Positions 9,053 to 58,721 of a stretch of DNA of 64,000 nt are shown here, piece by piece. Made by a program: the position numbers and the translations under genes. The stretch comes from Psammoneis japonica. Taxonomy: Eukaryota. Position 1 is the first letter of the stretch. Each line of letters starts with the position of its first letter. The notes below the pieces were generated by a model. That model had not been told where the DNA came from. It did no database searches and saw nothing but the letters and a program-made list of their open reading frames with translations. Location: positions 496,001-560,000 of the forward strand of contig QPGO01000037.1 of assembly GCA_008632985.1 (NCBI GenBank), in the 5' to 3' direction.

Positions 9053-12000
9053 ATGGCGGTCAACAACTTTACCCCATCCCACGATGAGGTTGACCCCAAT
9101 CCTTCCTTCCGATTTCCCGATGAGGTTGATTTTGATGATGTGGAACATTTTGCCAATGGCTTTGGAATGGAGCAGTTTGGTCCCAAGCTCAAAAGCACAG
9201 CTGCAACACATGCATCCAAAAAGCAGTTTTTGGAGTCAACGAAATGGACTCCCTCTCAACAATTTCTCACTCTTCCCTTCCTTTGCCACAAGCCAAAGTC
9301 ACGTTGAATTCCACATGTTGCAAAAGTCATCCGCACCAACAATGTCATCAGGAAAACTCTTGGACACCCTGACGTTTGGTCTCACATCAAGACTTGGGGT
9401 TGGTCCCTGAAGAAATCCTGTGCACTGAAAGGTCAATGCATTCTTTGTCATCAAAATTTGGAGGATGCTCTCCATTTCTCCAAAACACCCAGAGAGACAG
9501 TCAAAGAAGAGGAACACCGTGTGCAACTTCACCACAACATCAAAGCCATGGCAGAATTTGTTTGCACGATTGTCGCGGTGACGACCCAAATGACCCTGTT
9601 TCTGGCAAGCCTTGTTTCCATTTTTTCATGGTGCAAAAGCCTCCAAGAATTGATTGATGACTGTGCACAAGACCTTCATGGTGCATTCTTTGTCACCAAA
9701 ATTGCAGTGCATCACTTCCAGCACAATCCAGATGACTTTGACCATTGGTTCATGCAGATTTTTTGCAATGTCAAAACCCAAAAGGAGTGGCGCATGTTTG
9801 TCAACAGCTTTCCAGTCTCACGCAAATCCAATGACCCGGGGCCCCAGGTGGCCAATGTCAAGGAATTCATCACACCGGACAAAATCGGCAACACAAAGAA
9901 CTCTGTTGCAATGGCAGGTGACTCCCTCACCCGTCGGGAGGCATGCAAAGAAAAAATCAATTGCATGATGAATCATGAATTTGGGGAGCACTGTCCCAAG
10001 GAGCAACCTGGTGTGCAACCCAAGTGCAGCAAGTTGCTCACAATTCTTTGTTGCAGAATGTGTGATCAGAGGGCTGACCACATGGATGATGACAACAAAC
10101 AAGAGTGTCGGTCCAAAACCAAATGCAAAATCAGGAGGACCCGCAAAGATGGCACCTGTTTGCACGACGGTGTGTGCCCTCCCCCTTTTTCCTTCACCTC
10201 CTGTGTGCACCCCTTTTCTCACTTGTCCATTTTTTCTTCTGTTGTCATTGTGCACATCACAAGAGCCTTCTTTGACCATCCCCAACAAGAAGTCAAGGCC
10301 TGCATCACGCTCGAACCTGGCACATCCTCCGTCATCTGGCGACGTGCCGTTGTCCAGGAAGGCACACCACACTCTCACTGCCAACCTTCCCACTTTGTCG
10401 GAAACTGTGGATTTGGCAAAATCTTCTTCTTCCTCAATGGGTCCCCCCTCCAAGCCACCCGCCACTCAGCCGGTTGTTGCTGGGAAATGCCTGGTTGCAT
10501 CATCTCCTCCACTGGACCCCAACAACATGTTGTGGCTGGACAAGTCTGCTCTCTGCCAGCACTTTGACCCATCCAAGTGTTGTTCTGTCACCTCAGAGGA
10601 AGTTGCTGCCCATGTGTCATGCCTTCACATCATTGACAAGGCGACCAACACTGAGGGCATGCTGCACCATTCCACCACTGACTTTTACCTTGCAGACAAC
10701 CTGAGGGAAAACTGGCACATCTTTTCCAACAAAACTCCCACAAGCAATCCCACCACCGCCTCCCGTGTCAGAACTGAGTGCCCTCCTCACCTGGATCACT
10801 GTTTGGAGGAACTCTCCATCACCCGACAAACCAACTCCATGCACAAAGGGCACTTTGGGTGCCTTCACATGTGCATCCCTGCCCTCCTGCTTTTTATCTT
10901 GTTGAAGGGTGAGTCTGATCTAAAACGTGACGGATTGCTTGCCGTTGAGTCCAAAGACCGATGAAGGATCAAGCTCAGCTGTGCCGGGCAATCACATCAT
11001 CCAAGGATGCCCAGCCCACCAAATCAGCTAAACCCAAGGCCACATGCTGTCTTGCTGTTTTTGAGCCAGACAAAAACTTCAATGCCAATGAGTCATCCAA
11101 AATCAAGGCCATGGTTGCAGACATTCTTGACTCAACTCAGCTTTGCGAAAGCAAGGCAGAGCTTTGGAAACTGAGCAATCCTCTGCCATTCAACTGGTTG
11201 CTTTGGTGCAAGGAGCACTCAAAAGCATTTTGCCGTGAAATGGGTTTTCTACATTTCAAATGGGAGGACGTCACCATGCAGGGATTGTGCATGTCCCAGG
11301 GCATGTTCTGTGATGGGCACTTTGACAGAAAAAACTGCACCTGGTGTCAACATGGGAAAATGCCGCAGGTTGTTTCTTTGTCATGGATGCCTTTGGCGAC
11401 ACATGGTCCTTCAAGGCAGTCACCAACAGCAGAAATCCCGTTGGTCAATGCTGCAATGACAGGCATGACATGAAGCCGATGCTGACTTGGATGCAACACA
11501 ATCAAGCTCAGCTGGACTTTGTGCTTCAAGACATGGACCTGTGACACAACAGCCCTGCCCATCCTGACTGTCCGCTGTCCTCCAGCACATTCAAGCATCT
11601 TTCCCTGGATGACAGCATGCCGTGGAATGATGTTGTCATCGGCAGAGGTGGCAACATCCCCCACGTGCACATGGATTGATTGAAGTTCCTTGCACTCCCC
11701 ATCAGGGACTTTCACTTGTCTGCCCCAGCCACAGCTCTGCGCCATTTCAAGAACATTGTGCGCCGATCTGGGCCTGACCCAAAACAAGTCACAAGACTGG
11801 CCATCCTTGCCGGTCATCCAATGGGATGCCACCACTTCTGCTGTGTTGGGGACAACCACTTGCCCAACCCATGTTGTGAAGGCTCAGACCCCTTCACACA
11901 ATTCACCGATTGCTTGGCGAATGAATTTGGTGTGTTGTTTGGGGACCCACAGGTGGGTGGGATTGGCCCCATCAATTTGACATGCGAGAAGTTTGGTGAG

Positions 12001-13953
12001 ATTTTTCTTGTCAACAGGCAAACAAGCACCACTGACAACCCAGTTGACCTGATGGTTGACGAAATCCATGCAGCGCTGCTTTGGATCAATGACCACGTGA
12101 TCACCGATGAGTTCTGTCCCAATTTAATGGAACAACGCTGCAAGGCTGCCTGCGATGTTTGGGCACACCGAGGAGCAGATTCCACCAAGATTCATCTCAT
12201 GTTGGTGCTGCATTGTCTTGCACCATCTGGTGTTGCAGTGAAGGACCACCCGTGTTTGAACAACATGGTGCACCCTGTGTTCAATTCCGGAGCTGCTGCT
12301 CGACTGGCCCACATCAACCCAGAAGAACAACCGCTCATGCACCAATGGATGTCATTGGAGACCGGGACCAAAGAGCATGGTTGGAACGGAACAGAGCACA
12401 AACTTTGTGAGAATGCCAATGGTCTGTGTTCCAGACAAAACCTGTTCACATTTTCTCCATCAGGTCAGCATCTGCACAAACCCTGTGGATTGGCGGAGTG
12501 TCAAACAGTGGAGTGCATCGAATCCGACCTGAACCTGTGCAAGCAAAAAGTTGCAACAGTTCACAATGGAGTTGCAGCTGACAACAAATTGCACTCTTTG
12601 TCTGGATCATCCAACAGCAACAATTCCTTGTCATGTGATGGACTTGCTGCTGACAATGAATTAAACTCATTGACAGGAACATCCAACGTGGATGAATCCT
12701 TGACACATGACGGAGTTGTGGCAAACAATGAAACAAACTCCTTGCCAGAAGAATCCTCCAGCAACAAAGAAAGTGAGAGAGCAGAGACCGTCAGCTGCCA
12801 ATTGCCGTGTGATGGATTGGTCGATGACACAGTGGTCAACAGACAAAACAAATCAGATTGCTGCGAACCCATCATTGCTCCAGAGGAAGAGGAGTTTTCT
12901 GTTGATGCCACCGACACTTGTGCAAAGGCACCTGACCTTTCACAATGTCCCAATCTGGATGTGGATGAATGCGTGGATGCAACTTTAGTGCAAGTCTCAC
13001 ATTGGTGCATTCTCCCGTTCTGTTTTCTTGTTTGTCTTTGCAACTTGTGTGTCGAGTGCTGTTGTGGCTCATGCAAGACTCTTGCTGCAAATTTTTCAAT
13101 GATGCACAGCTGCAATGGCAGCACCAAAATCCTGTGGCTGTGCATGACAAGGCCTGTCAATGCAGGAGAGCTGTCCTTTGACAAGCTTTGTTCTGACCGT
13201 GGGGTGGAGGTGGCGGCAAACACTCAGCATCGAAGAGACAAGGCAAGGTGTCAAGTTGTGGAAACACTCTGCACGAACGCCACTGTTGAGGCACGCGCCG
13301 TCTCTCTGCAGGACGGAAGTGCCACTCACCACCTGAATTGCAACATTTCTGCAAAGGATTTCATCTTTTGCGTGAAGTCGTGATTCGGCGGTGAGGTTGG
13401 TTTCAAGAACAGCGGACTCATCCAGATTTGCATGGACTGTTGCTGGATGCAACACAGCAAGTGGAACATGATGTCTTTTGGCAATCGCTTCTTCTGCGAA
13501 AACCCAAAAGAGATGATGCAATCATTGTTGCATCCGAAGTTTGAAAGGTGTCACATCACAGTCCCGTGCAACCTGTGGTCCCTCACCCAAGTCGTGCGCA
13601 ACTTGGAGCACATAGAAGAATGTGCACTGATTCAATGCATGGACCACAAAATGGTGCTGGACGAAATTACGATTCGCCAAACATCGCTCGAAATTGCAGA
13701 GAATGACAGGGGCGATTGGCTTGGAAAGCCATCCAACCAGGAAGCCATGCATTTGGGAGTCACAGAACAGGAAATTTGGGAAACACTTCCAGAAACAGAA
13801 AGGGACACTGTCCTAGACTTTGTAAAGCAGCTTCGGAGTTGCGATCTGACAAAGCCATTCAGGTTCTTTTCCTTTGAGAGAAGAGTGCCAAATTGGCAGA
13901 GCTGCCTTGACCCTTGGCCAAGGTGGTTTCTGGAGCCATCCATCAACGAATGA
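9053..13953 (+). pseudogene. Large degenerate gene of unknown function (probable TE cargo/accessory ORF)
   Basis: Chain of co-oriented protein-like segments (9053, 9458, 9975, 10961, 11680, 13432) broken by frameshifts and TGA stops; Tyr is essentially absent. It converges tail-to-tail with the Plavaka-type transposase. Confidence 0.55.
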
Positions 13954-14103
13954 CGTTGATGGACTCAGTTTTACGTGCAGCTTCAATTCCTTAAATCAGG
14001 TGAGTGATGCTTGTCCTGGTTGTGTCGTGGGTTGCCAAAATTGCACATGTCCCGGCAATGTGGGGCTCCAACATGCTGCTGAATTGCAAGCTGCTGTTTG
14101 CAT

Positions 14104-17100
14104 TTACCGTTGTCGAAATTGCCCCTCAAGCGCCATTGTGAAACTTGTTTGCCCATGTTTTTCTCCTGTCTTGAACTGCCCAAACATGCTTTGTCTTTTT
14201 GTGTGACTTGGAGGTGCCTGGTTGCTCCTCGTAAACCAGCAATTTGTTGCCAACTGCTTCAATGGGAACCAAAAAAAGTTTTGGAGTGTACATGGATTTT
14301 TCCCGGTGGTCAAATCTTGGTTTTTCACTTGGTCCAATTGCCAATGACTGATGAGGTTGGTGTGTTGCAAGCACTCCACCATGGCGCGCTTGCCTGCCTG
14401 GTGAGTGCAAGGATGAACAATTGCAAATGACTCACCATTGCTCTCTCTTTGAAAGAAAGAATGAAGCCATGAAGGGAAGAACAAATCACCGCACTGAGCG
14501 CCAAAGTCAATGTTTGCCCAGTCGTGAACAGCCCCTTCACTGTCACAGTCTGGGTGTGCATGGCAAGTGTCGATTCCGTTTTTGTTGCAATGCTCAGTTT
14601 TGCAAAGAATGCTCTCCCGTTGTTTCTCTTGGTCACCAACACAGTCCTTCCACTTTTTGCCTGCAAAGTTCAGGTGCATCAGGTGCACCTGGCATTGTTT
14701 TTGTTTCCCCATCCAGAGGAACAAAACTGCCTTGTTTGCTGCATTGTGTTTCAACATGTGTGAGGACCCACCCAGATGGTGTTGCACCGACTCGCCCACC
14801 ACACAGATTTTGTGATCCGCCTTGTTTGCGATCCATGGATTGGCGGAAATGGCGCGGCAAACCCTCATTTGGTCTTCCATGCAAGACGCCACCTGGCCCA
14901 AGAAGACATCAAAGCTGAGTTGTTGAGCCATCGCCAAGGGCAATTGAAAAGTTCTTCAACAATGACTCACCAAGGCCAGCATCAAAATTCATGGCATGGT
15001 GGAAGAAGAACAGGAAGATGGGCAAATGCATCAATTTGTGGAGTTTTTGCAGCTTCCATCCCGCCCCTTCGTGCCTTGGGGAGAAATGGACTGTGCAAGC
15101 AATCAGCAATCAATTTTTTCAATGTCTTGTGAAGGTCGTTTCTGTCACTGGGCAGGTTGCCAAGCTTGTGCCATGCATGGAATGCAAGCATGTCTTCAAG
15201 TGGCTTGACATGCTGGCAAATGCTGCATCCAATTGGGTGTCTCTTTTTGTTTGTGCACCTCCGCTTGCCCTCTCCATCATCATTTGAATCATTGTCATTG
15301 TTTCTCACAGAACGGCCAGTCTTGCAGGGATCGTCGGATGCATCGTGTCACCAGATTCCCCCTCACACGGCGGATGATCATCATTCTGATTGCATTCTTG
15401 GGGAATGCAGTGACGGTCTGTTTGGAATTTTGGCATGCATTGGCCCAAGGGAACAGACGGTGCCTCTGTGTCTTCCTTGCTGAAGCAAGAGGTGCAAGCC
15501 TCATGACCCTCCTTTGTCAGCAACAGCAGGCAGAAGACAAAGGCCATTCCCACCCAGTGATGAGACTTTAAGAAGGCAAGCGACATCGCCCCGCCTTTGA
15601 AATTGGTTTGCAAAAAAGAAGAGCTGCAAGTTGAGTGGTGTTTCCCAAACATCTTTTCTGCCAGTCTGTCTGCCTTGCTTCTAACGGAGTCAGTCATGCT
15701 GTCTGCAAACACACCAATCTCCCTTTTCAGAGTGCCATTTTCATGCAGGTGCATCATGTTGCTGGCTGTGGAAAGAGTGACACCAAACAGTTGCTCCCCA
15801 AAGTCCACACCCAGCAAGCTGTTGGTTGAAACATTGTGCTGCTTCATGCAGTCCAATTGTTCCCTCCAGTGATTCCTCTCTTTGTTGTCAAGACTGTCAT
15901 CATTGGCATTGTCCTGAACTCACAACAAGTCACAAGCATGGACAAGCTTGCATTCCTTCCAAGGGTCGTCAATGTCATTGCATCCCGTCATGCAAAAATG
16001 GGAGCAACGTTGATGACAATTCTTTGCACCGCACCTGCCCACAAGGCAATCTCCGCTCTTTGCATCCCCGCTGATTGGGGCTGTGGTTGGAATCACATGC
16101 AGGTGATGGATCTTGTCTCCTCTTTGCACACAACACCCAGAGCCACCCCGTTCCATGACATCAAGCAGAGGCTGAAGTGTGGTTTTCAAAACCTTGTGGC
16201 AGTCATGGAGACTTTGCCTCTTTTCTGACTTGTGTGCATTGGACTGCTGTTTGGCTGCAGAAGATGACATTTTTTCAAGGTGGGGAATGCATCCAAGAAC
16301 TCTCCACTTTGCCTTGTTGTGCCACTGTTTGAAGGCAACATGCGCCGAGGTCACTGTGATGGGTTCTCTGCAAGAAATCCCATTGAAGCTGTCTGTCCCA
16401 TCTTGTCGACATGAACTGTCAAACATTCAAGGAACTGTTTTAGTGGATCCTTGACTCTGGCCAAACATGTGCTCCTGTGCCACTCTCCGGCCAAGACGCA
16501 TTTGTTGCCAGGGCCCTTGGCAACATGCATGCCAAAAGGATGGTCTGGGTCTGCAAGATTGCTTTTCTCCGCCCATGTGCAAGTGTCTGACATGCATGAT
16601 TGCCACACTTCTTTGAAGTTCCATTGTGGCGCCATTGCCATTTTCTCACCACGTTTGCCACTGGCATTTTCCAGGTTTGCCGGCATCATCTCTCATTCTG
16701 GTCTGGGAAACGATTGCAAAAGAGTTTCCATCAGTGCACTGCGACACGAGGCATTTTTGCACCCAGCTTGAATGTGGTGCCGCAATGCCTTTTGACAAAA
16801 GAGACAATGTCATTGCGCAGGTGGAGCGGCACTCTGCAGTTGCCTGTCAGCTTGCTCAGCTCCACACAGGCAGCATTTGGGTTGCTCAATGATGACAAGC
16901 CGGCGAAGGCTACCTCGGCTGGGTGTGGGGAAATCTTGCCCAATCTGCTGTCATCCAACAGGGAGGACACATCCTCTTGAGACAATTGTGCATTGCCTGT
17001 CCCATTGTCATCGGAAAAATCCATGGTGATGTCCGGAAGCGCGGTGAAAGATTTCACTTCTGAATTGCTGCTTTTGTCTGAAAGCACATCCAGCAACATG

Positions 17101-17546
17101 AAATTGTCCTCGTCTTTGCCACAGATGGAGGAAAGAGGGGACATGTTGTCTTCGAATGCTGGTGATCATGGAGCATCAGTTGGCCACTCTGATGTCCCTG
17201 TGGAGCCACCCATGTGGACATTGGAAATGGAGGCTCCTTGTCTTGATCGTCTCAATCCATGTGCAGAGGTGTCGTTGGATGACAAGGACATGTCCAATCC
17301 CCTGGAACTTGTGTGCCAAACATTTGCATTCCCAGAGGCGCTCCACCAACCAACCACTTTGACACAATCATTGGGAAACAAGGTGGGTCCCGACGCACCT
17401 TGTCCCGCCAAGTTTGCCATTTCATGAGCGAAAGAGAGGCATTGTGGATTGTGACTCAAGTGACCCAATGTGCACTGGAATGACTGCTTGCAACAAGGAC
17501 AGATGATTGCTTCTTTGCCCTCATTGTCAGACTGGGGTGGTGCCAT
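14104..17546 (-). mobile_element. Plavaka-type (CACTA/EnSpm-related) transposase pseudogene
   Basis: Motifs recognised in order: N-terminal CPCC..HLSH zinc finger; NLADPDHPF...GEWH..TC...DP..QFL..LTVHVDKMG; WRVLGCIP; LHDCH; ISGDAKSGDCLVGRCG; VDFG...MMH..ENG; QTNF.GG; GWKLQKLH.L.HLP...NFDAG.GE..LK. The expected Tyr residues read C/H. Confidence 0.8.
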
Positions 17547-18057
17547 TTTGCAGGTTGTGAGGAAAGAGACAGTTGCGCTTTGGTGCAAATGATGGTGCAA
17601 ATGGTTGCTGCTCAGGTTTGGTCATGCGAATGGTGTGTGCAGTGAGTGGCGACGGAAAACAAGACATGAAATTGGCGCGCAAATTGTGCTCATTCATTTC
17701 TTTGCATTGATGAATGCTTTTGTGGTCACCTGTCAAAAGCATGCATTGGGATCATTGAATGCTTTCAGATTGAACAATTGATGACAATGTGAAAATTGCC
17801 AACGGAAAGGAAAGAGAGCAAGTCAGAATGTGGTCTTCATCATGCGATGTGGTCACCACTCATGGCAAAAAAAATGAGTGAGGTCCAATGGCCATCAGCT
17901 CCAGTGGAAGAAATTTGAAGAGGAGAACAGTCTGAAACAAGAGAGAAGAGAAGAAAAGATGGAGGTGGGCTGCAGCTTGGCAAAAGAAGAGCCAAGTTGC
18001 TGGTTCAGCACAGGGAGGAAGGATCACTCCGGGGACCTGCACCTGTGAAGAGACTGC

Positions 18058-19140
18058 ATGGACATGTTTTGTTCATTTGGGTGCAGCAGTCACACAAGGA
18101 CTGACTTTGGCAACAACGTTCCATCTGTTGATGCAATTTGGAAGATTTGTTGGAACAACACAGAGAGGGAAGAACAAACCGTCAAGGAAAAATGGAAAGA
18201 AATGTGGGAAAACAAATGCAGGACCATGAGCAAGGTGCATGATGACATGCAGGAATGGAGCAAAGAAGCAAGGGAATGTGTGCACACTGCCCGGCAATGT
18301 TCTCCATTCGCAACAAGGACAAGCACGCAAGTGTGATCATCGAGCGTGCAAGGAATGCTCACAGAACCAGGCAGCATTGGAGCTCAACAGCAACACACCC
18401 AGACAGGCAAGGAGAGCTGTTTTGTGAAAGCAGTTGGTTGCACAACGATTGCAAGGATGAGATGCTAGATCTTTCAGCTGCTGGATCAAGGGAGGGCAAG
18501 CTTTGTTTGGCAATTGACAAGCAAGATGTTGGGGCATTGAGAGCAGAGTCAACCATCAGCTTGCCCACCCATGGATTGGACCCAAGTGGGAGATGCAGAC
18601 CACTTGCATTGGACAACGGTTTGGGAGGTGTGTGCTCACTGGTTGTGGACAAAGGGCGTCGCATTTGATGCCAGGAAGCTGGTGGAATTTTTCAAGCAAC
18701 AAGTCCTGCAAGACACACTGCACAGGTTGTGGTGGTGCAACAAACTGGAGTTCTTTGGATTGACGCCAAGGACGGTTGACAGTTGGACATTGGAGATCAT
18801 CAAGAAAATTGACTTGGGTGAGAGGATTGCAGCTGTTGTTGTGAGGACAAGCATGCGGCAATCCGGCAAAGACAATGTCTGAAGACAATGTTTGAAGATG
18901 AAGAAAGAAAAGATCTGCCGTGATTGCATCAAGCGTTTCATTGGCTGTGTCAGCGAGGCAACAAACGCATTTGATCACATGATTGATTGCTCACACAAGG
19001 GAAGGCACAGCGATTTTGTCATTGTCCATTTCAAGGAGGACGCCATGGAAGAATTGGGTTGGAGATCAGTTTTGGTGCCAAGTGGCAATCGGAGGATCAG
19101 AGAACATGGACAAAGCTCCAGCCATTCACAGGGATCAATT
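18058..19140 (+). pseudogene. Degenerate ORF of unknown function, divergent from the transposase
   Basis: In-frame segments 18571-18882 and 18892-19140 are separated by a single TGA. Composition is protein-like with no Tyr. Confidence 0.4.
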
Positions 19141-19168
19141 TTCACATGCGAATCTGCACAGTTGAAAG

Positions 19169-19620
19169 TGCAGCATGCATGCAGACAAAAGGTTGTTTTT
19201 GTCACGCCCTTTGTGACATTCAAAGGCTGCAACACGTTGCCGTGATGCATCAACTCTCATCAGTGGCTGTGTGTTGCACTCCTCCCCATGTGTCACGCGT
19301 CCATGCGGCTCTTTGCTGACGTGTGCGGCACTGACACTGCACGGTTTTGGCGGAACAGTGTGGGTGCGTACGAAGGAACATGCAGAACTGCACAGAGTTT
19401 CACGCGTTCGACAGTGATCAACGTTGCTGCAGACAACTCCCACTCAGGGTTTCGAACCCCTGGCCTCCTGCCCAATGGTTGCGATGAACCACTCCGCTGT
19501 GAATTCACAATGCAGCATGCATGCAGACAAAAGGTCATTTTTGTCACACCCTTTGTGACATTTAAAGGCTGCAACACGTCGCCGTGATGCATTGACTCTC
19601 ATCAGCAGCTGCACATTGCA
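19169..19620 (-). mobile_element. TRIM-like miniature LTR element: 110-bp terminal direct repeats, 232-bp interior
   Basis: Repeats 19169-19278 and 19511-19620 both run TG...CA. AAAG flanks both sides (19165-19168, 19621-19624). On the minus strand a polypurine tract GGGGAGGAG abuts the 3' repeat. No clear PBS. Confidence 0.65.
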
Positions 19621-19942
19621 AAAGTTTCAAATGGAATGATCGAGCCAGATGTCGAATTCATCGTTGACAATTGACCATAAAATTTGAGCTGAACATTTCA
19701 TCTCTTTAATTCAAATGAATGCAACCAAGGATGTTGTCAAAGAAAACACAAACATTGCCAACCACAATTGTTTGGGAAGGAGGTTGCAGTTAAAAATGCA
19801 CAAAGAGGGGAGGTGCTGTCACCATCAGAGTGTCAAGAAAGAGGTTTGAAATTTTGAAAAGCCGGTCTTCCTCTGAAGACCTGCTGCACCACACGATTGC
19901 CCAAACTTCACGCCGTTGCCACAACACATTAAGTCAAGGGCC

Positions 19943-21198
19943 ATGGGAAGGAAAAAGAAGAAGTCGGAGAAGGAGAGGGCAGCAGAAGAGGTGCCGCCGA
20001 ACAGCCCGAGGCTGACAGTGGCATTGCAGCGGTCGGGGGCTGCTGGTGATCACAAATTGCTGAAGAGAGAGGTGGGAGAGGTGGCACGGAGAGAGCTCTT
20101 CCCAAAAGTGAGGTTCCTTGTGAAAGCAGACATGGCAAGTGGTGGCAAGGTGTCACAGCTGACACGGAAAAACATGGCAGATGGCAAGTTCAGCAAGCAT
20201 GAATGGGCAGGATTGTGGGAGGGCTGGGCAAAGAAAAGGGCGTGCTCAATGTGATCAAGGTGAAAAGAAACGCCGTGTGTCAGATGACAATGAAGAGTGT
20301 GATGAGTGGCAAGTGCGGCGGAGGGGGCACATGTCCAAGGTGGGAATGGGTGTGGTGCTGCCAATGAGAGTCTCCTTTCTTGAAGTCATCATGACAGAAA
20401 AAGAAGCCGGGGAAATCTGCAAGAGGAATGAACAAGCAAGGAAGAAAACCAGGAAGCAGAAAATGGCAAAGCCAAGATTGAAGAAAAATTCCTGGCAACT
20501 TGGGAGGATGGGGCTGTTGACACCATTGTGTTTGAGAAGTGCAAGAACAGGGAGGCGCGCATGCATGGTTCCAGGACAACATCCCCAAATGCACGAAGAG
20601 CACTGTGATGTAGAGAAGGATGGCAGAGTCAGGCAGCACCAAGGCTGCAGATCTGGCAATGGCAAGCAACAAGGCACTGGCCCTCTTGATGATGGAAAAC
20701 TGCTGGAAGGTTTGGGAGCACAAAACCACACAGGAGGGAGATGATGAAGGGGGCAAGGAGGAAAAACCAGTGCCGTTGCACACAGACCCATCGCGACAGC
20801 GTGACTCTTGGAAGGATGAAGGAACAGTGCACTTCAATGCCCTGCTTGAGGAGACAAAGAAAGACAGAGCAAGTGAGCAGGGAGTGCATTTCGACACACG
20901 ACACACTGACGGAAAGAAAAAGGAGAGCAAAGGTGAAGGAAAAAAGGAAAGAAACACTAAAAAACCAACGAATTCAGAGCAAAGAATGCAAGCAGCAACA
21001 GAACTTTCCAGTGACAACAAGGAGGACAACAATGCAACAGATGCACCAGCTGACAAGAGCAATGAGGAGGGCGATGGAGCCAGCCAAGAAAACAGCAGTG
21101 GAAGTGAGAAGAATGAAAAACTCAGTGCAAGCCAATTGGAAATGTGGAGCAACCGGCACCACAGCATTGACTCAGTGTCAATTGATGATCAATGTTAA
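19943..21198 (+). pseudogene. Plavaka-associated accessory ORF, degenerate
   Basis: VARRELFPKVRF...W..LW and ASNKALALLMMENCWKVW...PLHT...SWKDEGTVHFNALLEETKKDR match the recalled diatom TE motif SDEAFALL.LENYW...KYT...GWS.EG..RFN.L...V..DR. Confidence 0.6.
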
Positions 21199-21716
21199 AA
21201 AGCAAAAGCAGTGCATCACTGTTGATTGAGAAGAGTGGGCTGAGTTCATTGCAAGCATCATTTTAAATGTAAAAACTGGTGTGTGACGTGAAAAAAACCA
21301 ATGACATTAATTTTCAGCTTCTGCAGTGGAGGAAGGCACATGAACAATGTGAAAAGAGGGGGGCTTTTAGAAAGTTAAAGTTGATTTCTTGCTGTGAAAA
21401 AGATGTCTCCACAGCTGATTTAATTGGCTGTTGCAGGTTGAAATTTGTCACCAGCTGCACAACTGACAAGGTTTGAAACCACAAAAATGTTGACAACAAA
21501 ATGAACAAAAATCACTGCAACAAGGCATGAGGTGACCGCCGCGCATTGCGGCCTCTGATGTCTGTCTCAGCCATCTGCAGAGTCAGCAAGCTTGTGCTCT
21601 CTCTGTGGCAGGTGCTGCATCAGTGCTGGAAGGTGTTGCCACAGCACACTGCAATGGCCAAAAGCATTCTGAGCATGCCAAGACTCATGAGAAGAAACTT
21701 TGTTTTTGTCGAGAGG

Positions 21717-21746
21717 TGCTGCTGCTGCTGCTGCTGCTGCTGCTGC
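21717..21746 (+). repeat. (TGC)10 microsatellite
   Basis: Ten perfect TGC units. Confidence 0.9.
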
Positions 21747-22626
21747 GCTGTGCCACCAGCACAACTTTGTGTGCCGGCACAATGCACAAATGTGTGAAAC
21801 AACAAGATGCTTTCTGTGCATCTGGGAGAGAACATAGTCAGTTTGCTCAGCTGGCGCTGACAAGGCGTGTCTGCTTGAAAGAAAGATTTTGTTCAAAAAG
21901 GGGGCTGGCACAGCAAAAAGTTGGCGCGCCACTGTGCCAAGCAGAGAGAGCCAGCTGCCACCCACAGCACCCCTGCCAGGCAGCTTTGCTGGACAGCGCC
22001 ACTCTCAAGAACTGAGGAGCAACTGTGTGGCACTGCACCTCTCCCAAAATGAAGGCTTGAGGGGTGCTCCCAGCACTTCAGGCAGTTGTTGCCATGCCAT
22101 GGCAGGCTTTCCGTCGGGAGGGGGATTTTGCACATCATGCGCACTCGCACGTTTCATTTCACATGAGAAAGTCCACATCTGAATGAAATTAATGTGATGA
22201 TGCCGCAAGCATCTTTGAAATGCATTCATTGATGTTGTGATGACATGCACATGCTTCCAATGTTGGTTCCTCCTCTCTCAGGTGGAACTCTCTACATCGA
22301 AGTCTGAAACCGAAAGATTTTGGATTGCCGCGCTCGCCACTGTCAGAAAACAGAGGCGTGACGATTGCTTGCACCAATCATTTTGCTGCATTTTTTTGCC
22401 TGTTAAGTGAGTTTTGCGCCGGGCGTCCAAATTAATTGCAACACACAACGGTTGTTTTTTCGAAACAGGGTGCTGCGGTGTGCACTTCTGCGTGACCCAC
22501 GTGACCTGACTAACATGCCTTGGGGCCAGAGCAGTGCGTGGTGCTGGTTGTTTTGCTTCTGACCGTTCTGTCTTCTGTGAGGTTTCACGAGTTCATCTGT
22601 GCATGTTGATGTTGTCTAATTCGAGG

Positions 22627-22855
22627 TGCGGTGGCTCAAGTGAAAGTGCAAGTGTGCGAAATTTGCGCATTGATGCAGTTGTCTTTGCCAAATGGTTGGT
22701 TGCAACTTGCGCCCATTCCATTGTTTCTGTCCACACTCGATCTGCGGTGGCTTGAGTGAAAGTCTGAGTGTGTGAAATTTGTGCATTGATGCGGTTGTCT
22801 TTGCCAAACAGTCAGTTGTGACTTGCGCCCATTCCATTGTTTCTGTCCACACTTG
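22627..22855. repeat. 116-bp tandem duplication
   Basis: Copies start at 22627 and 22743. Differences are nearly all CA/TG/CG swaps (aaatggttggttgcaac vs aaacagtcagttgtgac). Confidence 0.9.
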
Positions 22856-23768
22856 TTCCGCAGGATCCTTGCTTGCTCCTTCTCCCACTCCGCAGCTCCC
22901 GCTTTTTCCAGCTCCTCCTCGGTGAAAAATCTCCCACCAGTCTGTGGTGGTGCTGCCGCCCATGCTGCCTTTAGCTCCTCCATGGTTGAATCATCCCTGG
23001 GCACGTCGACCATTTAGACTAGATTTCGTGCGCGATGACCGCTCAGAAGCAACGGCTGAAATGCAAACGAAGCACGGATGGAATTGCACGTGCTCCTGCG
23101 CATTTTCAGCAAACTCACTGCGACGTTGCGTCCTCCGATCCTTGCATCTGTGAGGTTCAAATTGAATCCATACATCACTTGTAAGTGCTGACACCTGGAA
23201 GGTCACCTTGTTGCAGTTCGACGTGTTTGGATCTAGTTTCTGACGTTGCCAGTTCTCCTTGGCATGATGTGCGCAGCTCTGCAGGGTCTTTCTTGGCACT
23301 TCTGAACGATCGCACTTTTTGTTCCCACAATTTCTCCCCGACTGATTCGATGGCATGCAAAAGAAACACAACGACCTCCCCGGCGGCGAAAGCCAAAGTC
23401 GCCGAAACCAAACAGAATTGTCGCCGGGACGTGGCGCGTCTGTACCTGCATACGTCCGTCTGCACTGCGTGCTACGGTACTACAGCGCCCCGTATCAAAA
23501 CTACATTAATGTTTATTTTTTGCTTTCTTTTCCTTTTCTCTTCTTCTTCTGGCTGGGAGGAACTGCTGGATAGCCTGGGTATTATGTTGATCGACCGCGC
23601 GCGATACCGACCCGCGACGCAAAAAGAGACTTCGACTTCATTCGCTTCGCAGTTCGCAGAAGATACAGTGTATGGCGTTGTTGAGTTCACAGTGCTGTGT
23701 GACCGCAAGAGCATATCTGCCGCTTCTTCTTCTTCTTCTTCTTAACAGGTTGTATAAGTTGCATTGAA

Positions 23769-24627
23769 ATGACTGATTTGGAAGAACCGCTTGTTGCAAT
23801 GGAGGCAGGCGAGGGCACGCCGCTGGTGGACGGTGCGGATCGTTATGATGCCGAGAACGAGCCTCCACCCCTGACAGAAGTCAAGGAGAATACCTTGAAG
23901 GAAAAGATTGTTGCTGGAGCCGGCGCAGTGACCTTTGCAACCTCGGTCGGGGCCATGGTGGTGGAGAGTCACCCCTCTGTCTATGTGTCTGGCGCTCTGG
24001 GTGCTGCTCTCGGACCCTATGCTGCGTTTCAGCAACAGAAGATTACTCAAGTAGAAGCACTCAAGGAAACCAACGGACGCATGGCGGAAGAAGTTGATCA
24101 ACTCAAGTTTGAAAACATGAGACTCCAGGCGAGTGTATCTGAATTGGATGAGAGTGTGAAGCATTTGAAGGAAATGCAAGACACGCTTCATACCATACAG
24201 GCGACGGAGGGGCAGTCGATTAAGGAATTGGAACGGCAATTGAAGGAATCGCAACAGATTCTGCATTCCATGAAGTCAAACTTGAAAGCGGATATCTTGC
24301 AAAATTTAATTTCGGTAGTTCTGGCTTGTGATGATGATGGTGATACGATTCTAAGCGACGACGAGATTAATCAACTCATTGGCAAATTGGAGGGTTTGAG
24401 CGGAGTTCAATTAAAGGAAGAAAAACTGAAGCAGATCATTATTGATAACGGACGCTCGTTGAATGGTACGTTTCTGAGAATGAAGTCTTTGTTTTATGTT
24501 ATTTTTCTGTCTTAGCTCATCTCTTGCCGCGTCTGCTTACTTTGTTGAAGCCATTATGAAAGTGGCGAGAGAACTGCTCGCCGGTGAAGACGCGAGAGGA
24601 CGTATCTTTGAATTCGTTGAAAAGTAA
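23769..24627 (+). CDS. Conserved diatom-type membrane-anchored coiled-coil protein with EF-hand-like loop; 2 exons (23769-24465, 24551-24627)
   Basis: Two hydrophobic segments, a coiled coil and a DDDGDTILSDDEI loop. GT..AG intron 24466-24550 restores the C-terminus AIMKVARELL...FVEK*. Normal TA content. Confidence 0.85.
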
Positions 24628-24999
24628 CGAATTCTTTTGATTGCACTGTAGATAAGAAGGATGCAGTTTTTAAAGGATTGTCTGCTTCTACACTACTGCC
24701 GTACCATACAATAGATGCAATACCGTAAAAGAGATTTTCTTTTCTGTTGCGGTCTAACCAGATTTTACTTTGGGGTGCCTACAAGACTGTTTAGTGTTTA
24801 GTAGTGAAACACAACAATGCAACAAGTAAAGGTGAAAGTATATGCTATCGCTACTTGTACTACGCATTCCGCGAACAGTGAGAAAATCAATCTACGTTTC
24901 GCCTACCTCGAGAAAACACCAGAGAGCAAGTTGCCTCGTTTTTCATGCCTGGTGCTTAGTACGACAACGAGTGGTTTGACAATCGGTGCCATCCTGGAT

Positions 25000-26870
25000 T
25001 TTTTTTGTTACTGTAGATTCGGATTCTGAATCCGTAAAGTAAAGACCCGGAAACAAAACAATCACGCGATCTCCGGGCTTTGCAGTTTTGCGTTGGGCAC
25101 TGACGACCGGTTTGTGTTCTGCTCTTGAGAAATCCACGACATCAACAACCAGCGGCCACATTTTGCATGGTGGGTCGCTGAAGCGACAAAACAGACAGGA
25201 TGCAGATCAAACAGCCCTTTCACGTACTGTGGAACTGAAACCCCGTCCAACTCGCTCTCGACATCTTCAGCGCACGCCTGTTCGGTCCATTCATTCAATC
25301 TTTTGCAGCCATTCGCCCAACAGACGTTCGCTGGCATGCCGAGTGCTGTCCATGACAATGCCTTGCATGTTGCATGCTGGATGTAGCCAACAGTTTCACC
25401 AGTGGGTTTGGGTGGTGAAGAGCATCACATCCATCCTCTGAGAATGCCTCCAGCTCCCCTCGCTTGGAATTGACATTGGATGCTGCTCCTGTCAAAGTGA
25501 GGTTTGCACTTGGCTCAAGTGTCTCTTTGAGGACATTGATGCAGTCTTCAGATGTTGGTTGCTTTTTGCAAAGGCAAGGCAGCACAGAAAACAACTGCTC
25601 TGCCTGTTCTTCCTGGCATTCCTGAAACTTTTGCTTGACAGTTTCCCGTTTGGGAAAGAACCTGGTGCAGCAGGATCTCTGCATCGGGTGACCAGACTCT
25701 CCAGCATTTGTAAGAGACTCTGGTGATCTTGAGTTGCTTGGCTGCAATGAGTCTCTGTCTTGTGGATTTGCTGTCTGAGAGCTCCTCCCCATCGATCCCC
25801 GAGACTCGTGCAACTTTGACATCTTCTGTCTGTTTGACTCCAGCTTGGACTGAAGCAATGAAACTTTCTCTTCTTTTCCCTCCATGTGTCTCTGATGCTC
25901 TTTGGCTTGCCCGTGGCTTCCCTCAGATCTGTGCTCTTCTTGTCTTTTTCTCAGATTTCAGTCCATGGAAAAGACACCTTCCTTTGGCGTTCACAAACTT
26001 CCACTTCTGGGCACCTCTTTTTGGAGCTGACAGATTCAAGCTCCTTGTTCACAGTTGAGAGCTTTGGTCATCCTCTTCACCTCTCCCATCATCATCATTT
26101 TTGTGTTTGATCTTTTTTGTCATGATGCAACACGCGCACTGCCAGCTGTTGCTCAGGTGTCCAAATCAAGCAGCGTTGACTCTAAATGCTTCATCAATCA
26201 ATGTGGCAAGATTGGAAATGCCTTGGTGTCCTTTCAATCCACCACCATGGATGGGTTCAGAGCATCACATGAAACAAACATGGCACCACACTTCAGAGTT
26301 GTGAGATGGTTTGACGCTGCACAGCTGCTCCCCTCAGCAGAAGGTCCTGTTCAAAGAGGCATTCAATCAGTGTGTTCTTCCCAACACACAGCTTCTTTTG
26401 TCCCTCTGAGTGTGTGCACAGCCACTCTCATTGGAAGTTGGAGCCTTTGGATTGCCCTGACTCCAGAAACTGCAGCACGAGCCACCTCTGGAGAGGCGGG
26501 GAGGTTTTGTGATGATGAGGCAGTTTTGGGAGTCATGCCAGTGACCATGCTCCATCCACAAAACTGTTTTCTGCAAGAGTTGATTGGAAGCAGCAGACTC
26601 TGGGTGCCACTCAAATTCGATGCTGCCTCATGTCCCATGGCGGGGGTGCACTCAAGAAATTCTGCACAACAAAAGGCCAGAGGCGGTCAACAGAGACCTC
26701 TGTGTTTGTTTCCTGTGGTCAAGAAACTCACAGCAGCCCTCCTGCCACACTGCTGCCCACTGTGACATGACAAACCCTCAGATGATGGCGGGGACTCGAT
26801 TCATCGTTGTGCGTTTGCGTTGCTTGTGACGAGACTGCCATTGAAATTCTTTTTCGAGGGTTGGCACATT
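25000..26870 (-). pseudogene. Degenerate gene forming small TpA-depleted island D2 (about 25230-26870)
   Basis: Fragmented minus-strand frames (26363-26638, 25295-25885, 25062-25358, 24943-25161). TA is nearly absent in 25230-26870 and returns at 26876. Confidence 0.55.
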
Positions 26871-27093
26871 GGCACGTACGCACCGTACCGTATGCTGCCG
26901 ACTGTTGTGACTGATTATATGTTGATGGATGGACAGACTGACTTAGAGAAACATGGTGCGTGACGTGATAATACCAAGGAAACCGTAGAACCTACGAAAG
27001 AGAAAAAACGCATGCAAAGTTCTGCATGAAAGATGCAGATGGGCTTCGCACTGTCAATGATGCTCTCGCTGCTTGTTTCACGAATAACGCACA

Positions 27094-28989
27094 ATGAGTC
27101 GTTACCACAGCGGACCACCGACCATGGCAGAAGATGATGGCGACGACATGTGTGACAGACGTGGCAAGAAGGACAAACGAACTGTTGAAGAAGCAGTGAT
27201 GGATCAAGCGGCTCAAGATCATCAAGCTCGCAGATGGCAGAGAAAGCTTCGTCAACAGCAGCATCGTCAAGAACGATCTCATCCCCAACTAGTAGATGTG
27301 TCGGACCTAGAAGAGAGTATTGATGTGCCAGTCTCTGCCATGTCTGGTGCTTTTGCAGTCTATGATGAAGGGGACGTTCGACGACGTGGGCGAAATGATG
27401 ACTTGACTGTCGTTTCTGGTTTGGAGTCTGATCGATTGGATTCTGTCATGCCACCGCCGGAGCAAAACGTCAGCACTCTACATGTTGAGGACGCTCAACC
27501 AACAGGCGATTTCGTTGGTCGTTTTCGACAAGGTGAAATCAGTCGAATGGTTCAGGAGGAGAATGCTCGCCTTCAGCAATCCCTTGCCCATGCTGAGGTT
27601 GCTCAAGCTGTCCCGGTATCCGCGAACGACAATGATCAAAACGATGAGGAAAGGACAGAAGAAAAGAGAGAAAGACGGAAACGCTTTTTTATTTATGGAA
27701 TTGTAATGCTGGTGATTGTTCTGGTTGCAGCAGTCGCGATTGGAGTTCCAGTTGCAATCATGAGCAACAACAAGAATGACACTCCTGCTCCCACTCCATC
27801 TCCGACTAGCTCTATCGTTCCTCTCCCCAATACGCTGTGGCGACCCGTTGGTCAAGTTTTGAATGGCAGAGACTCACTTGACTTCTTTGGGGAATCTGTA
27901 GCCTTATCGCACGACGGCGGTGTTGTGGCTGTTGGAGCAGAACAAGCTTCGGACCCAGGGTACGTTGCCGTGTTTCGATTAGATCAATCTAGACAAGAGT
28001 GGGCACAAATAGGTGAAGACTTGGTTGGAGAAGCTGATGGTGACGAATTTGGTGAATCGGTGGCATTGAATGGAGATGGCAATATAGTTGCGATTGGAGC
28101 TGACAACAATGGCAGCGGCGGGACAGGTTCTGGTCATGTTCGTGTTTACGGATACAACAACGCCTTCGACACTTGGACCCAAATAGGCAATGGCATTGAT
28201 GGACTAGCAGCTGGCGATAGATTTGGCGCCTCTGTATCTCTTTCAGACTCGGGAACCATTCTTGCCGTTGGGGCTTCTGGTGAAGACACGGACGGTGGCG
28301 ACAATTCTGGATCGGTTCGTATATTCAAATACGACGCAGGGACATGGGAGCAACTCGGACAGGCACTCACCGGCCAATCTGTTAATGATCAAGTAGGCGT
28401 ATCAGTTTCTTTGAGCAGTTCGGGGACGATAATTTGTGTTGGATCAAGTGGAAATGATGTGTCGGTGTACGAATACAATTCTGAATCGTCATTGTGGGAT
28501 CCAAAAGGTAACGCAGCGAACGGAAGAATCAGTATCGATTCGTATGGGTCTGCTGTTTCTCTTGATGACAGCGGTTCCGTTATGGCCGTGGGATCACCTT
28601 TTAGCGGCGAAAGGGTGTTAATTTTTGCTTACGATCGTGCATCTTTGACGTGGAAACAAAGAGGTCAAACTCTAGAGACGCAACAGGAGGGCGATGCCTT
28701 TGGCTCTTCAGTGGCTTTGAGCGGAAACGGGCATGTCGTGGCAGTAGGAAGTTTTCGGTACAATATCGAAACTCGAGAAGACGTGGGCCAAGTTTCAGTC
28801 TTTCAGTTTGACACAAGCACAGAGAGCTGGGTTGAGGTGGGCAAACGATTAAATGGTGCCTCTAGGCGTGATACTTTTGGAAATTCCGTATCATTGTCTG
28901 TCGACGGCAGTGTGCTTGGAGTGGGAGCAAGGAATCGCGATCTAAACGGCGACGACAAAGGGTCCGCATATATTTTCACCGTCTTGTAG
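27094..28989 (+). CDS. Single-pass membrane protein with FG-GAP/integrin-alpha-like beta-propeller repeats
   Basis: 631-aa ORF with TM segment FFIYGIVMLVIVLVAAVAIGV, a PTPSPT stalk and seven repeats of FG.SVALS.DG..VAVGA...G.VRVY. Confidence 0.9.
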   Translation: MSRYHSGPPTMAEDDGDDMCDRRGKKDKRTVEEAVMDQAAQDHQARRWQRKLRQQQHRQERSHPQLVDVSDLEESIDVPVSAMSGAFAVYDEGDVRRRGRNDDLTVVSGLESDRLDSVMPPPEQNVSTLHVEDAQPTGDFVGRFRQGEISRMVQEENARLQQSLAHAEVAQAVPVSANDNDQNDEERTEEKRERRKRFFIYGIVMLVIVLVAAVAIGVPVAIMSNNKNDTPAPTPSPTSSIVPLPNTLWRPVGQVLNGRDSLDFFGESVALSHDGGVVAVGAEQASDPGYVAVFRLDQSRQEWAQIGEDLVGEADGDEFGESVALNGDGNIVAIGADNNGSGGTGSGHVRVYGYNNAFDTWTQIGNGIDGLAAGDRFGASVSLSDSGTILAVGASGEDTDGGDNSGSVRIFKYDAGTWEQLGQALTGQSVNDQVGVSVSLSSSGTIICVGSSGNDVSVYEYNSESSLWDPKGNAANGRISIDSYGSAVSLDDSGSVMAVGSPFSGERVLIFAYDRASLTWKQRGQTLETQQEGDAFGSSVALSGNGHVVAVGSFRYNIETREDVGQVSVFQFDTSTESWVEVGKRLNGASRRDTFGNSVSLSVDGSVLGVGARNRDLNGDDKGSAYIFTVL

Positions 28990-29504
28990 ATGCCTGTACC
29001 GTAAGGCAACACCATACAGTATGGCTTGGGTGCTGACAAGGACTTCGCGTCAGGTTTGTTGACGTCACGCGCTTGTTGCAAAAACAAAGTAACAAGGATA
29101 TACAATTGCCGAACGGCAGCAAGCAGCAAAACAATAAACGTATCTTTTGGTGTCAAGCAAATGGACAAACTGTTGAAGTCGGACCAGACAAGGATGCCGC
29201 AACCTTGTACCGGCTCGTGCTGGATCCGACAAGTGAGAAACCCGTTCTCGCATTTGCTTGTCGCTCCAGAGAGAATATCTGTACTCCATAGAATCGAAAT
29301 AGTAATGGACGGAACAAATAGCTACAATACAATAGTAGCAAGTGCCTCGACTGACAAGAACTGCATTTCATCCTCGTGGATTCGAGCGTGCTTCCTATCT
29401 TGGGAGTCCAACAGTCAAGACGATCGCACGGTATCTTCACAGGTATGATGGCCGATCTCGAGCAGAGTGCGCGCTCTCTCCATTTTCATCCCATACACTC
29501 TCGC

Positions 29505-31710: not shown

Positions 31711-31789
31711 AGTCTTTGTGGGGAGTTGTCAACACACACTGTTTTCTCAATCAGTTTGTGTTTGTCAAATTCAGGCAGTGAGAATTGAT

Positions 31790-33696: not shown

Positions 33697-33710
33697 TTGG
33701 CAATGCATGC

Positions 33711-43515: not shown

Positions 43516-43519
43516 CATG

Positions 43520-58710: not shown

Positions 58711-58721
58711 GAGTGCTGAAC

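Follow-up and report, generated by a model that had tools for sequence, protein, structure and literature searches.

INTRODUCTION

Repeat-induced point mutation (RIP), known from ascomycete fungi, introduces transitions at one specific dinucleotide, turning CpA into TpA (C→T), and in doing so raises TpA and A+T content and creates stop codons. In animals, APOBEC3 and ADAR enzymes hypermutate retroelements and viruses; their substrates are single-stranded cDNA or double-stranded RNA, and the resulting signatures, limited to one strand, are fixed by reverse transcription. Here, we analyze a stretch of 64,000 nucleotides from the nuclear genome of the diatom Psammoneis japonica (GenBank assembly GCA_008632985.1, contig QPGO01000037.1, positions 496,001 to 560,000, forward strand; "the window," with all coordinates below counted from its first base), in which a pseudogene of a Plavaka-family DNA transposon, and most of the DNA around it, has lost nearly all of its TpA dinucleotides.

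A process directed at TpA has been described in the chlorarachniophyte Bigelowiella natans. According to a preprint on mutation-accumulation lines of this alga, 231/302 new nuclear point mutations fell into two integrated viral regions, and 230/231 of these were A→G or T→C changes, all of them on TpA (Mettrop et al., bioRxiv 10.64898/2026.01.13.699255, 2026). The same text reports that 11/15 lines were affected, that TpA was converted into TpG or CpA in the viral DNA at about 6e-7 per site per generation, that 124 TpA-depleted clusters of at least three 1-kb windows each occur genome-wide, that 324 TpA-poor coding sequences are enriched in DDE-endonuclease and reverse-transcriptase domains, and that its authors favor an adenosine deaminase of the ADAT2 type as a candidate enzyme (bioRxiv 10.64898/2026.01.13.699255). 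Diatoms, flanking bases, and trinucleotides are not mentioned in the text of the preprint (bioRxiv 10.64898/2026.01.13.699255).

RESULTS

TpA is nearly absent from seven blocks of the window

An earlier note on this DNA had described a systematic replacement of tyrosine by cysteine or histidine in 14104-21198 and had presented it as a property of the Plavaka transposase and a partner open reading frame (ORF). That region is defined as follows.

14104-21198, unstranded: the region flagged by the earlier note, with 17 TA (462 expected), 739 CA, 764 TG, and 164 CG

The TA deficit in these 7,095 bp exceeds chance, the lowest count among 1000 mononucleotide shuffles being 412. To describe the effect as belonging to one gene and its partner proved too narrow, since TpA loss extends over some 44.5 kb of the 64 kb analyzed and also takes in a reverse-transcriptase element and DNA devoid of ORFs. 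The relative abundance of TA (rho) of 0.23 for the window as a whole splits into two states: rho(TA) is 0.03 to 0.11 in 10/10 low sub-blocks and 0.46 to 0.68 in 6/6 normal blocks, and it switches at the borders within about 100 to 200 bp. The low state comprises seven blocks with a total length of 44,522 bp (about 70% of the window) and 4.2 TA per kb.

1-23440, unstranded: TA-depleted block 1, rho(TA) 0.03-0.11 in four sub-blocks; repetitive where tested
25040-26877, unstranded: TA-depleted block 2, rho(TA) 0.03, rho(CG) 0.27; between two host genes
30653-35100, unstranded: TA-depleted block 3, rho(TA) 0.05, rho(CG) 0.14
37533-41640, unstranded: TA-depleted block 4, rho(TA) 0.08; plus strand G-rich
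43513-48950, unstranded: TA-depleted block 5, rho(TA) 0.08, rho(CG) 0.83; holds a reverse-transcriptase ORF
57274-60818, unstranded: TA-depleted block 6, rho(TA) 0.06
62284-64000, unstranded: TA-depleted block 7, rho(TA) 0.04; continues past the window end

The loss of TA is accompanied by a surplus of both of its transition products. Rho(CA) and rho(TG) lie at about 1.2 to 2.0 in the low blocks; in pooled low-block DNA (42,392 bp), rho is 0.07 for TA, 1.71 for CA, and 1.61 for TG, compared to 0.54, 1.20, and 1.24 in pooled normal-block DNA (21,552 bp). CG is reduced as well (0.43 in low versus 0.93 in normal blocks, and 0.14 to 0.59 in 9/10 low sub-blocks), whereas other A-containing dinucleotides are little changed (AA, 1.26 versus 1.18; GA, 1.01 versus 1.15, low versus normal) and GC content is 0.49 in both states. 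Within the normal blocks, non-ORF DNA has the highest TA density (331 TA in 6,789 bp; rho, 0.68), which rules out a genome-wide neutral bias. In terms of codons, tyrosine makes up 9/14,186 six-frame codons of the flagged region (0.063%) versus 845/43,080 in the normal blocks (1.96%).

The few TAs that remain are unevenly distributed over their flanking bases. Relative to the normal blocks, residual TA density is 0.71 in TTAA, 0.47 in CTAA/TTAG, 0.17 in GTAA/TTAC, and 0.05 to 0.09 in all other contexts with residual TAs; ATAT (0 of 46) and ATAC/GTAT (0 of 114) are fully lost. This suggests a tentative flank rule by which TA is wholly lost in ATA/TAT and survives best in TTAA. An attempt to tell a +1 from a -2 flank preference by means of the trinucleotide products was dropped, as these are confounded by CpG decay.

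Separately, the plus strand of 37533-48950 has an extreme GC skew (G, 0.35 to 0.44; C, 0.14 to 0.19). The sense (minus) strand of the reverse-transcriptase element is C-rich and G-poor and carries Pro/Ser/Thr-rich ORFs of up to 825 amino acids (aa). In this GC-skewed TA-free block, rho(CG) is 0.83 (43730-48711), and CA and TG stand at 251:530 on the plus strand. The skew possibly reflects a second, strand-specific mutational or compositional process.

A Plavaka-family transposase has lost its conserved tyrosines

The gene in which the amino acid changes had first been noticed is the following.

14141-17504, minus strand: Plavaka-family (DDE) transposase pseudogene, from tblastn of relatives and colinear with residues 191-1151 of relative P0001

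Its relatives were collected by a HMMER search with the frame 15305-16426 of the minus strand, one TGA being read through as X. We obtained 389 relatives at E ≤ 1e-3, 184 at E ≤ 1e-10, and 17 at E ≤ 1e-30, the best of which, P0001 (1154 aa), shares 44% identity over about 310 residues (E, 7.9e-71). The tblastn, tyrosine-content, and cluster work below refers to the 150 listed of these 389. The earlier note had assigned the gene to Plavaka, a family of elements related to CACTA/EnSpm-like and KDZ elements, and had expected it to align to Plavaka transposases. It does so, colinearly over about 960 residues (P0001 residues 191-1151 map in order onto 16940-14141), and the motifs WRxLGYIP, RNYH, and GDxKSGD align between the window gene and its relatives. 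PF18759 (Plavaka) is matched by 9/12 top relatives at E ≤ 0.001, and by 7/12 above the curated 26.3 bits. The profile search that the note had proposed for the window itself, on the other hand, found a Plavaka match in 0/11 window ORFs at E ≤ 0.1. The family assignment thus stands by way of the relatives and the colinearity, not by the window's own ORFs, and the predicted membership of the window gene holds transitively only.

The copy in the window is broken by five in-frame stops (16695, 15922, 15307, 15121, and 15112) and at least four frame changes. Two of the latter fall at 14946 and 16376. Among contigs of sequencing run X1 (all contigs compared with the window come from runs of one sample), the sole contig at 14946 and one of several at 16376 each carry one extra base; these two frame changes may be assembly errors or copy differences, and the frame may be unbroken in other copies. 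A search for terminal inverted repeats found none at a seed of 14, and a seed of 9 gave only short pairs with 71 to 89% complementarity.

The pseudogene is devoid of tyrosine except for two residues at its 3' end. All seven motif strings quoted in the earlier note are present in stop-to-stop ORFs: WRVLGCIP, LHDCH, and GRCG in 15920-16426 (minus), TVHVDK and GEWH..TC in 16351-16692 (minus), and ENCW and PLHT in 20614-21198 (plus). The tyrosine-bearing forms that the note had given for them largely agree with the consensus of 20 aligned relatives (WRxLGYIPDLE, RNYHKCL, GxWYxxT, YxDKTG, and FHAWYK); GRYG is the exception, as it occurs in P0001 but is GRFG in others and only GRxG in the consensus.

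We then projected the high-scoring segment pairs (HSPs) of the relatives onto the window codons and defined conserved-Tyr columns as those with tyrosine in at least half of at least eight aligned relatives. At the 10 columns found in this way, the window carries histidine five times, cysteine three times, arginine and leucine once each, and tyrosine never, which bears out the systematic Tyr→Cys/His replacement claimed for the minus-strand gene. Conserved control residues were mostly retained (Trp, 9/10; His, 10/10; Gly, 23/27; Phe, 18/25). The comparison with P0001 by itself gives a similar picture: at its 33 tyrosine positions aligned to the window, in five slightly overlapping HSPs, the window has histidine at nine, cysteine at six, phenylalanine at three, and tyrosine at none. 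Other changes of conserved residues in the first projection were Val→Ala (four), Asn→Asp (three), and Ile→Val (two). Conserved arginines became His (four), Gln (two), Cys (one), and Trp (one); these changes are CpG decay, a second, ordinary process that runs alongside the loss of TpA.

The two tyrosine outcomes are interleaved within one gene, for example in a His codon at 16479 and a Cys codon at 16467, only 12 bp apart. Since cysteine and histidine are mixed in this manner, both DNA strands carry the change, as the earlier note had argued. It had also proposed counting Y→C against Y→H relative to the coding strand, and this count reveals no strand bias (5 His to 3 Cys; binomial P = 0.73), nor do the dinucleotides of the flagged region (739 CA versus 764 TG; P = 0.54). 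The exchange of tyrosine for cysteine or histidine is the codon-level view of the block-wise loss of TpA.

Copies of repeats were mutated independently

Comparison of the window with itself yielded 10 repeat HSPs between low blocks (1,464 columns) and nine between normal blocks (1,963 columns). The former contain 32 dinucleotides that read CA in one copy and TG in the other, with the next class counting 4, while the latter contain 4 such CA-versus-TG pairs. As the same dinucleotide is CA in one copy and TG in the other, the copies were hit independently after duplication.

Similar patterns are found among the relatives of the transposase. Their median tyrosine content is 2.8%, but 4/150 have almost no tyrosine, with a single residue in each of P0061 (1200 aa), P0064 (1290 aa), and P0121 (1127 aa) and none in P0055 (101 aa). 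The Tyr-free relatives derive from environmental assemblies of three source collections; DNA loci for P0121 and P0061 were not found in the metagenome contigs searched. In alignment A1, made up of the window and 20 relatives (21 sequences) and containing 11 conserved-Tyr columns, the three long proteins read as follows.

P0061: His 7, Cys 0, Tyr 1, other 3
P0064: His 4, Cys 3, Tyr 1, other 3
P0121: His 0, Cys 6, Tyr 0, Phe 2, Ala 1, and two gaps

P0061 and P0121 are thus biased in opposite directions, one toward His only and the other toward Cys only, while the window (5:3) and P0064 (4:3) are mixed, all of these being small numbers. It may be that in some elements most of the mutations struck the same strand; this would favor a single-strand-specific enzyme.

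Within the P0061 cluster, five members of 1200 aa (identity, ≥90%) show differences at 20 columns, and at 16 these are of the predicted TA→TG/CA type: His/Cys at six columns, Tyr/His at two, Met/Thr at two, Met/Thr/Ile at one (ATA→ATG or ACA), and Leu/Ser, Asn/Asp, Ala/Thr, Arg/Gly, and Val/Met at one each. P0064 and P0278 differ at 2/1290 residues, both Cys/His. That near-identical environmental transposases differ almost only by His/Cys, Tyr/His, and Met/Thr/Ile might hint at a process still active in natural populations.

No homologue was found for the purine-rich plus-strand ORFs

The second gene to which the earlier note had attributed tyrosine loss lies on the plus strand.

19877-21198, plus strand: purine-rich ORFs in three frames (the "partner ORF"), from the stop-to-stop ORF list

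We found nothing in favor of its being a transposase partner. For the ORF at 20614-21195 (plus), neither a Pfam match above threshold nor, among the near-length or longer proteins searched, a homologue at E ≤ 1e-3 was obtained. The alignments of the 150 transposase relatives are all confined to 14000-17700, and a 302-aa ORF occupies the same place on the opposite strand. ENYW and KYT, the supposed ancestral motifs of a partner family, are accordingly without confirmation. Long ORFs are to be expected here in every frame, because TA-free DNA keeps only TGA stops: the six frames of the flagged region contain 329 TGA, 18 TAA, and 7 TAG (TAA+TAG, 25/354). In 9.5 kb, 134 ORFs of at least 50 aa were found, in all six frames and with hardly any tyrosine.

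Gene content and copy number differ between the two states

Pfam matches above cut-off were obtained for 1/41 long ORFs in the low blocks and for 7/11 in the normal blocks. The one match in the low blocks is to RVT_1, the transposase having been recognized through its relatives. The annotated features are listed below.

43328-45343, minus strand: RVT_1 ORF (E, 4.5e-9; 36.7 bits versus a cut-off of 29.6)
26877-30653, unstranded: normal-TA block with host genes, an FG-GAP repeat protein and a PP2C phosphatase
27088-28986, plus strand: FG-GAP repeat protein (Pfam), in a normal-TA block
29508-30598, minus strand: PP2C phosphatase (Pfam), in a normal-TA block
35735-36760, minus strand: host Ser/Thr kinase gene (Pkinase; E, 2e-55), in a normal-TA block
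48950-57274, unstranded: normal-TA block with three Myb/SANT-repeat ORFs (50944-51783, 51558-53078, and 53275-57378, all minus strand)

The kinase has 1034 relatives, and the named ones among the best 120 are all from diatoms, with 54 to 63% identity (Amphora, 63%; Cylindrotheca, 59 to 61%; Fistulifera, 61%; Nitzschia, 59 to 61%; Pseudo-nitzschia, 58%; centric genera, 54 to 60%); the maximum among the matches is 67%. Judged by this one gene, the host would be a diatom, probably a raphid pennate, with no close relative among the sequences searched; the PP2C phosphatase, used as a second marker, could be placed no more closely than Eukaryota. The three Myb/SANT ORFs (280, 507, and 1368 aa) are adjacent and intron-less, share the recurring motif W-T-x-x-E-[ED]-x-x-L-L-E-G, contain internal DNA repeats that are 61 to 81% identical, and are a tandemly expanded host gene family. 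No gene was recognized in the normal-TA blocks 41640-43513 and 60818-62284 (rho(TA), 0.68 and 0.56), the latter of which includes a 290-aa ORF at 61384-62253 (minus) with 10 tyrosines and no Pfam match; these blocks could be host genes of unknown family or young, unmutated mobile DNA.

Copy number was read from the summed depth of X1 contigs over 11001-31000. Normal blocks have depths of about 48 to 68 (single copy, about 53), and 11001-23673 has depths of 148 to 2066, from which it follows that the low block up to about 23.6 kb is repetitive in the genome. A mobile origin is established for two of the seven low blocks, by the transposase and the reverse transcriptase, together with the repeat depth at 11 to 23.6 kb. 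Block 2 (25040-26877) is 1.8 kb long, CpG-poor (rho, 0.27), and devoid of any recognizable domain.

A very high-copy short repeat lies at 19005-19671, where X1 depth reaches 64,082 (about 53 for single copy) and many X1 contigs end or join; it includes 117-nucleotide direct copies (19162-19278 and 19504-19620) that are 342 bp apart and 86 to 91% identical. One contig of a second run, X2, skips 85 bases at 24464/24550 with GT..AG ends at a depth of 366, next to the host ORF 23703-24512 (plus). This gap is a spliced intron, and run X2 is probably RNA-derived, though not recorded as such. X2 contigs lie on host genes, and over 11001-23673 they give depth only at 19005-19671, the absence of contigs being not informative on expression.

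DISCUSSION

A proposed DNA-level hypermutation of TpA in mobile or foreign DNA

We propose that the window has been shaped by a DNA-level hypermutation of TpA to TpG or CpA (A:T→G:C) that is confined to transposon-derived or foreign DNA in the diatom nuclear genome, a reading to which we assign a probability of roughly 0.8. Its direction follows from codons that are tyrosine in many relatives and Cys or His here. Both products, TpG and CpA, are present in nearly equal numbers, and the changes are confined to discrete regions, two of them of established and the others of putative mobile or foreign origin, with seven low blocks facing six normal blocks of the host-gene type. The process would be enzymatic and targeted, probably via a silent-chromatin state of the low blocks, which we propose because most of these blocks also show CpG decay, and it would act as a genome defense.

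The expected damage would be missense rather than nonsense. Every tyrosine codon would be hit, along with Ile-ATA, Leu-TTA/CTA, and Val-GTA codons and first-position A after T, and TA-containing signals, such as TATA boxes and AATAAA, should be destroyed as well. By the codon table, stop codons would never be created: TAA→TGA stays a stop, and TAA/TAG→CAA/CAG/TGG removes one. It is for this reason that mutated elements should stay open in all frames.

As for the chemistry, we see about even chances that a nucleic-acid deaminase that strictly prefers a 5' T converts adenine into inosine. It seems unlikely that the thymine of TpA is instead modified or oxidized on both strands and then mispairs to give T→C, and some other chemistry is somewhat less unlikely. 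The earlier note had inferred a double-stranded DNA process. This goes further than the data, as a single-strand-specific enzyme that acts on either strand at different times would look identical.

Several observations weigh against the proposed hypermutation or narrow what can be said about it. TpA is its own reverse complement, and adenine deamination and thymine modification are therefore inseparable by sequence. The A:T→G:C change at TpA is read from the end state, and its direction from protein relatives. Our flank rule is tentative because host DNA stands in for the ancestral composition of the transposable elements, and a one-flank multiplicative model fits all classes but CTAG (predicted, 0.31; seen, 0.07). 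The CA/TG discordances between copies are in part of other origin: the same low-low alignments also contain CpG-decay pairs (23 CA/CG and 18 CG/TG), from which we roughly estimate that about 12 of the 32 discordances stem from CpG decay; the remaining approximately 20 would correspond to about 31 ancestral TA per kb, which equals the normal-block TA density. Where other contigs deviate from the window over 11151-23095, 11/23 listed differences (from a list of 40 out of 210) are CpG-type and 2/23 involve TpA, so that at this locus the TpA process may have reached saturation or come to an end. Copy number covers 11001-31000 only, and within it block 25040-26877 is TA-free at single-copy depth (48 to 62); either it is an old relic with copies diverged beyond 90%, or repeat status is not required. 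Finally, block 43513-48950 is TA-free with near-normal CpG (rho, 0.83), and a link to cytosine methylation is therefore not general.

Other explanations for the loss of TpA

An alternative, albeit an unlikely one, is a passive bias, in which an ordinary TpA lesion goes unrepaired in silent chromatin without any dedicated, targeted enzyme. The CpG decay in 9/10 low sub-blocks would fit silent, methylated chromatin. The erasure of TpA is near total, however, its edges are sharp, and adjoining host non-coding DNA has the highest TA density of all. In B. natans, moreover, the rate in target DNA is reported to be about 1000 times the baseline, in 11/15 lines, which points to a regulated activity (bioRxiv 10.64898/2026.01.13.699255).

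We consider it very improbable that A-to-I editing of transposon transcripts by ADAR- or ADAT-like enzymes, fixed by reverse transcription or RNA-templated repair, produced the pattern. While ADARs and tRNA adenosine deaminases are known for a 5'-U preference (see also bioRxiv 10.64898/2026.01.13.699255), and one low block does hold a reverse-transcriptase ORF, the element at issue belongs to the DNA transposons, its two strands are equally affected, ORF-less DNA is affected to the same extent, and the other A-containing dinucleotides, such as AA and GA, are barely changed. As both strands of a DNA transposon carry the change, the one-strand route through RNA editing and reverse transcription does not fit, in agreement with the argument of the earlier note.

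Adaptive avoidance, in which elements are selected to be TA-free, e.g., against a TA-reading nuclease, rather than mutated by the host, would find some support in Tyr-free relatives that are full-length open ORFs of 1127 to 1290 aa, each present as several near-identical copies. Open frames are expected anyway, though, as TpA→TpG/CpA creates no stops. Conserved and presumably functional tyrosines were replaced, the window copy is riddled with stops and frame changes, and sister copies differ at one column (His versus Cys; Met versus Thr versus Ile) as a mutation pattern would have it. We regard this explanation as no better placed than RNA editing.

Still less probable is a sequencing or assembly artifact, such as erroneous G or C calls where TpA carries a modified base. 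The assembly is imperfect, as seen from the additional bases of X1 contigs at 14946 and 16376, and X1 may be the assembly's own sample and hence not independent. Even so, separately built exact-word contigs from X1 reproduce the TA-free stretches with 0 to 3 differences per 380 to 570 bp, repeat copies hold stable, differing CA/TG states, and Tyr-free relatives occur in assemblies of three source collections; the same change is reported as heritable in Illumina-sequenced lines of B. natans (bioRxiv 10.64898/2026.01.13.699255). CpG methylation decay alone (CG→TG/CA), which would account for the depletion of CpG in the low blocks, the surplus of CA and TG, and a gain of Cys and His through Arg CGY codons as in the observed arginine changes, is refuted as the sole cause, since it can neither remove TA (rho, 0.07) nor alter tyrosine codons (8/10 conserved Tyr became His or Cys) and since block 43513-48950 lost TA and kept CpG.

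Implications

The hypermutation proposed here may explain why repeat-rich diatom DNA holds long ORFs without homologues, and stops reduced to TGA affect gene prediction in such regions. Tyr-free ORFs or a rho(TA) below 0.1 offer a simple screen for affected elements in assemblies and metagenomes. Transposon ages and family relationships in such genomes are not readable from simple divergence. Base editing could profit from a natural enzyme that edits adenine in DNA or modifies thymine specifically in TpA, and the search for this enzyme and for the signal that targets it would be greatly helped by the genetics available in diatoms.

Comparison with known systems

Among Plavaka transposases, the window copy differs from its relatives, which carry the Plavaka domain, in being a Tyr-free pseudogene below Pfam significance. 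With regard to RIP, the locus would share the copy-by-copy attack on duplicated or mobile DNA, the sharp compositional blocks, and the ruined transposase genes. It is unlike RIP in that TpA is erased, GC content is 0.49 in both block types, and no stop is created; the C→T signature at CpA is absent, as TpA is depleted and TAA and TAG make up 25/354 six-frame stops. As to the dependence of RIP on duplicated copies, the 32 CA/TG discordances and the repeat depth at 11 to 23.6 kb stand beside one TA-free block at single-copy depth and a B. natans target that is single-copy. Decay of 5-methylcytosine at CpG resembles the process in that it, too, turns a palindromic dinucleotide into TG and CA, on either strand and in the same blocks; it differs in acting on CpG and in being unable to explain tyrosine loss, and one block lost TA only. 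APOBEC3 and ADAR would have in common with it a deaminase-type editing against mobile or viral nucleic acids and a nearest-neighbor preference. The one-strand A→G signature of the ADAR type is not seen here, where the changes in a DNA transposon and in ORF-less DNA are symmetrical between the strands and the requirement for a 5' T appears to be absolute.

The closest match is B. natans, which shares the TpA target, both products, discrete foreign regions beside normal host DNA, and TpA-poor coding sequences rich in DDE and reverse-transcriptase domains. For TpA-directed hypermutation, our literature search, beyond the reach of which most subscription journals lie, returned this preprint only and nothing for diatoms. 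As far as these searches reach, we thus describe a process of this kind in another lineage that is only distantly related to B. natans, and for the first time in a diatom, so that the phenomenon is not a one-species curiosity and may be a widespread genome defense in major marine primary producers.

The hosts are a chlorarachniophyte (Rhizaria) in one case and a diatom (Stramenopila) in the other. It is tempting to speculate, though at somewhat less than even odds, that diatoms and chlorarachniophytes share a TpA-specific enzymatic base-editing defense, guided by chromatin or small RNA, that is either old or laterally spread and is still active. Such a shared defense might be pictured, just as tentatively, as a "reverse RIP" that clears transposons and integrated viruses of TA and thereby of tyrosine codons, TATA boxes, and poly(A) signals, yet never introduces a stop; conceivably, it would date back at least to the ancestor shared by Stramenopila and Rhizaria, or else have spread between them. 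The two cases also differ in degree and in kind of evidence. According to the preprint, rho(TA) is 0.45 in the B. natans giant-virus region, which is still mutating, the target there is integrated, single-copy viral DNA, and rates were measured in mutation-accumulation lines; here, the loss is near saturation (rho, 0.03 to 0.11 over about 70% of the 64-kb window), transposons and repeats are hit, no viral genes having been recognized, and the process is read from end-state sequence. To the B. natans report, the locus described here adds the independent mutation of individual copies, the property of creating no new stops, and a candidate flank rule.

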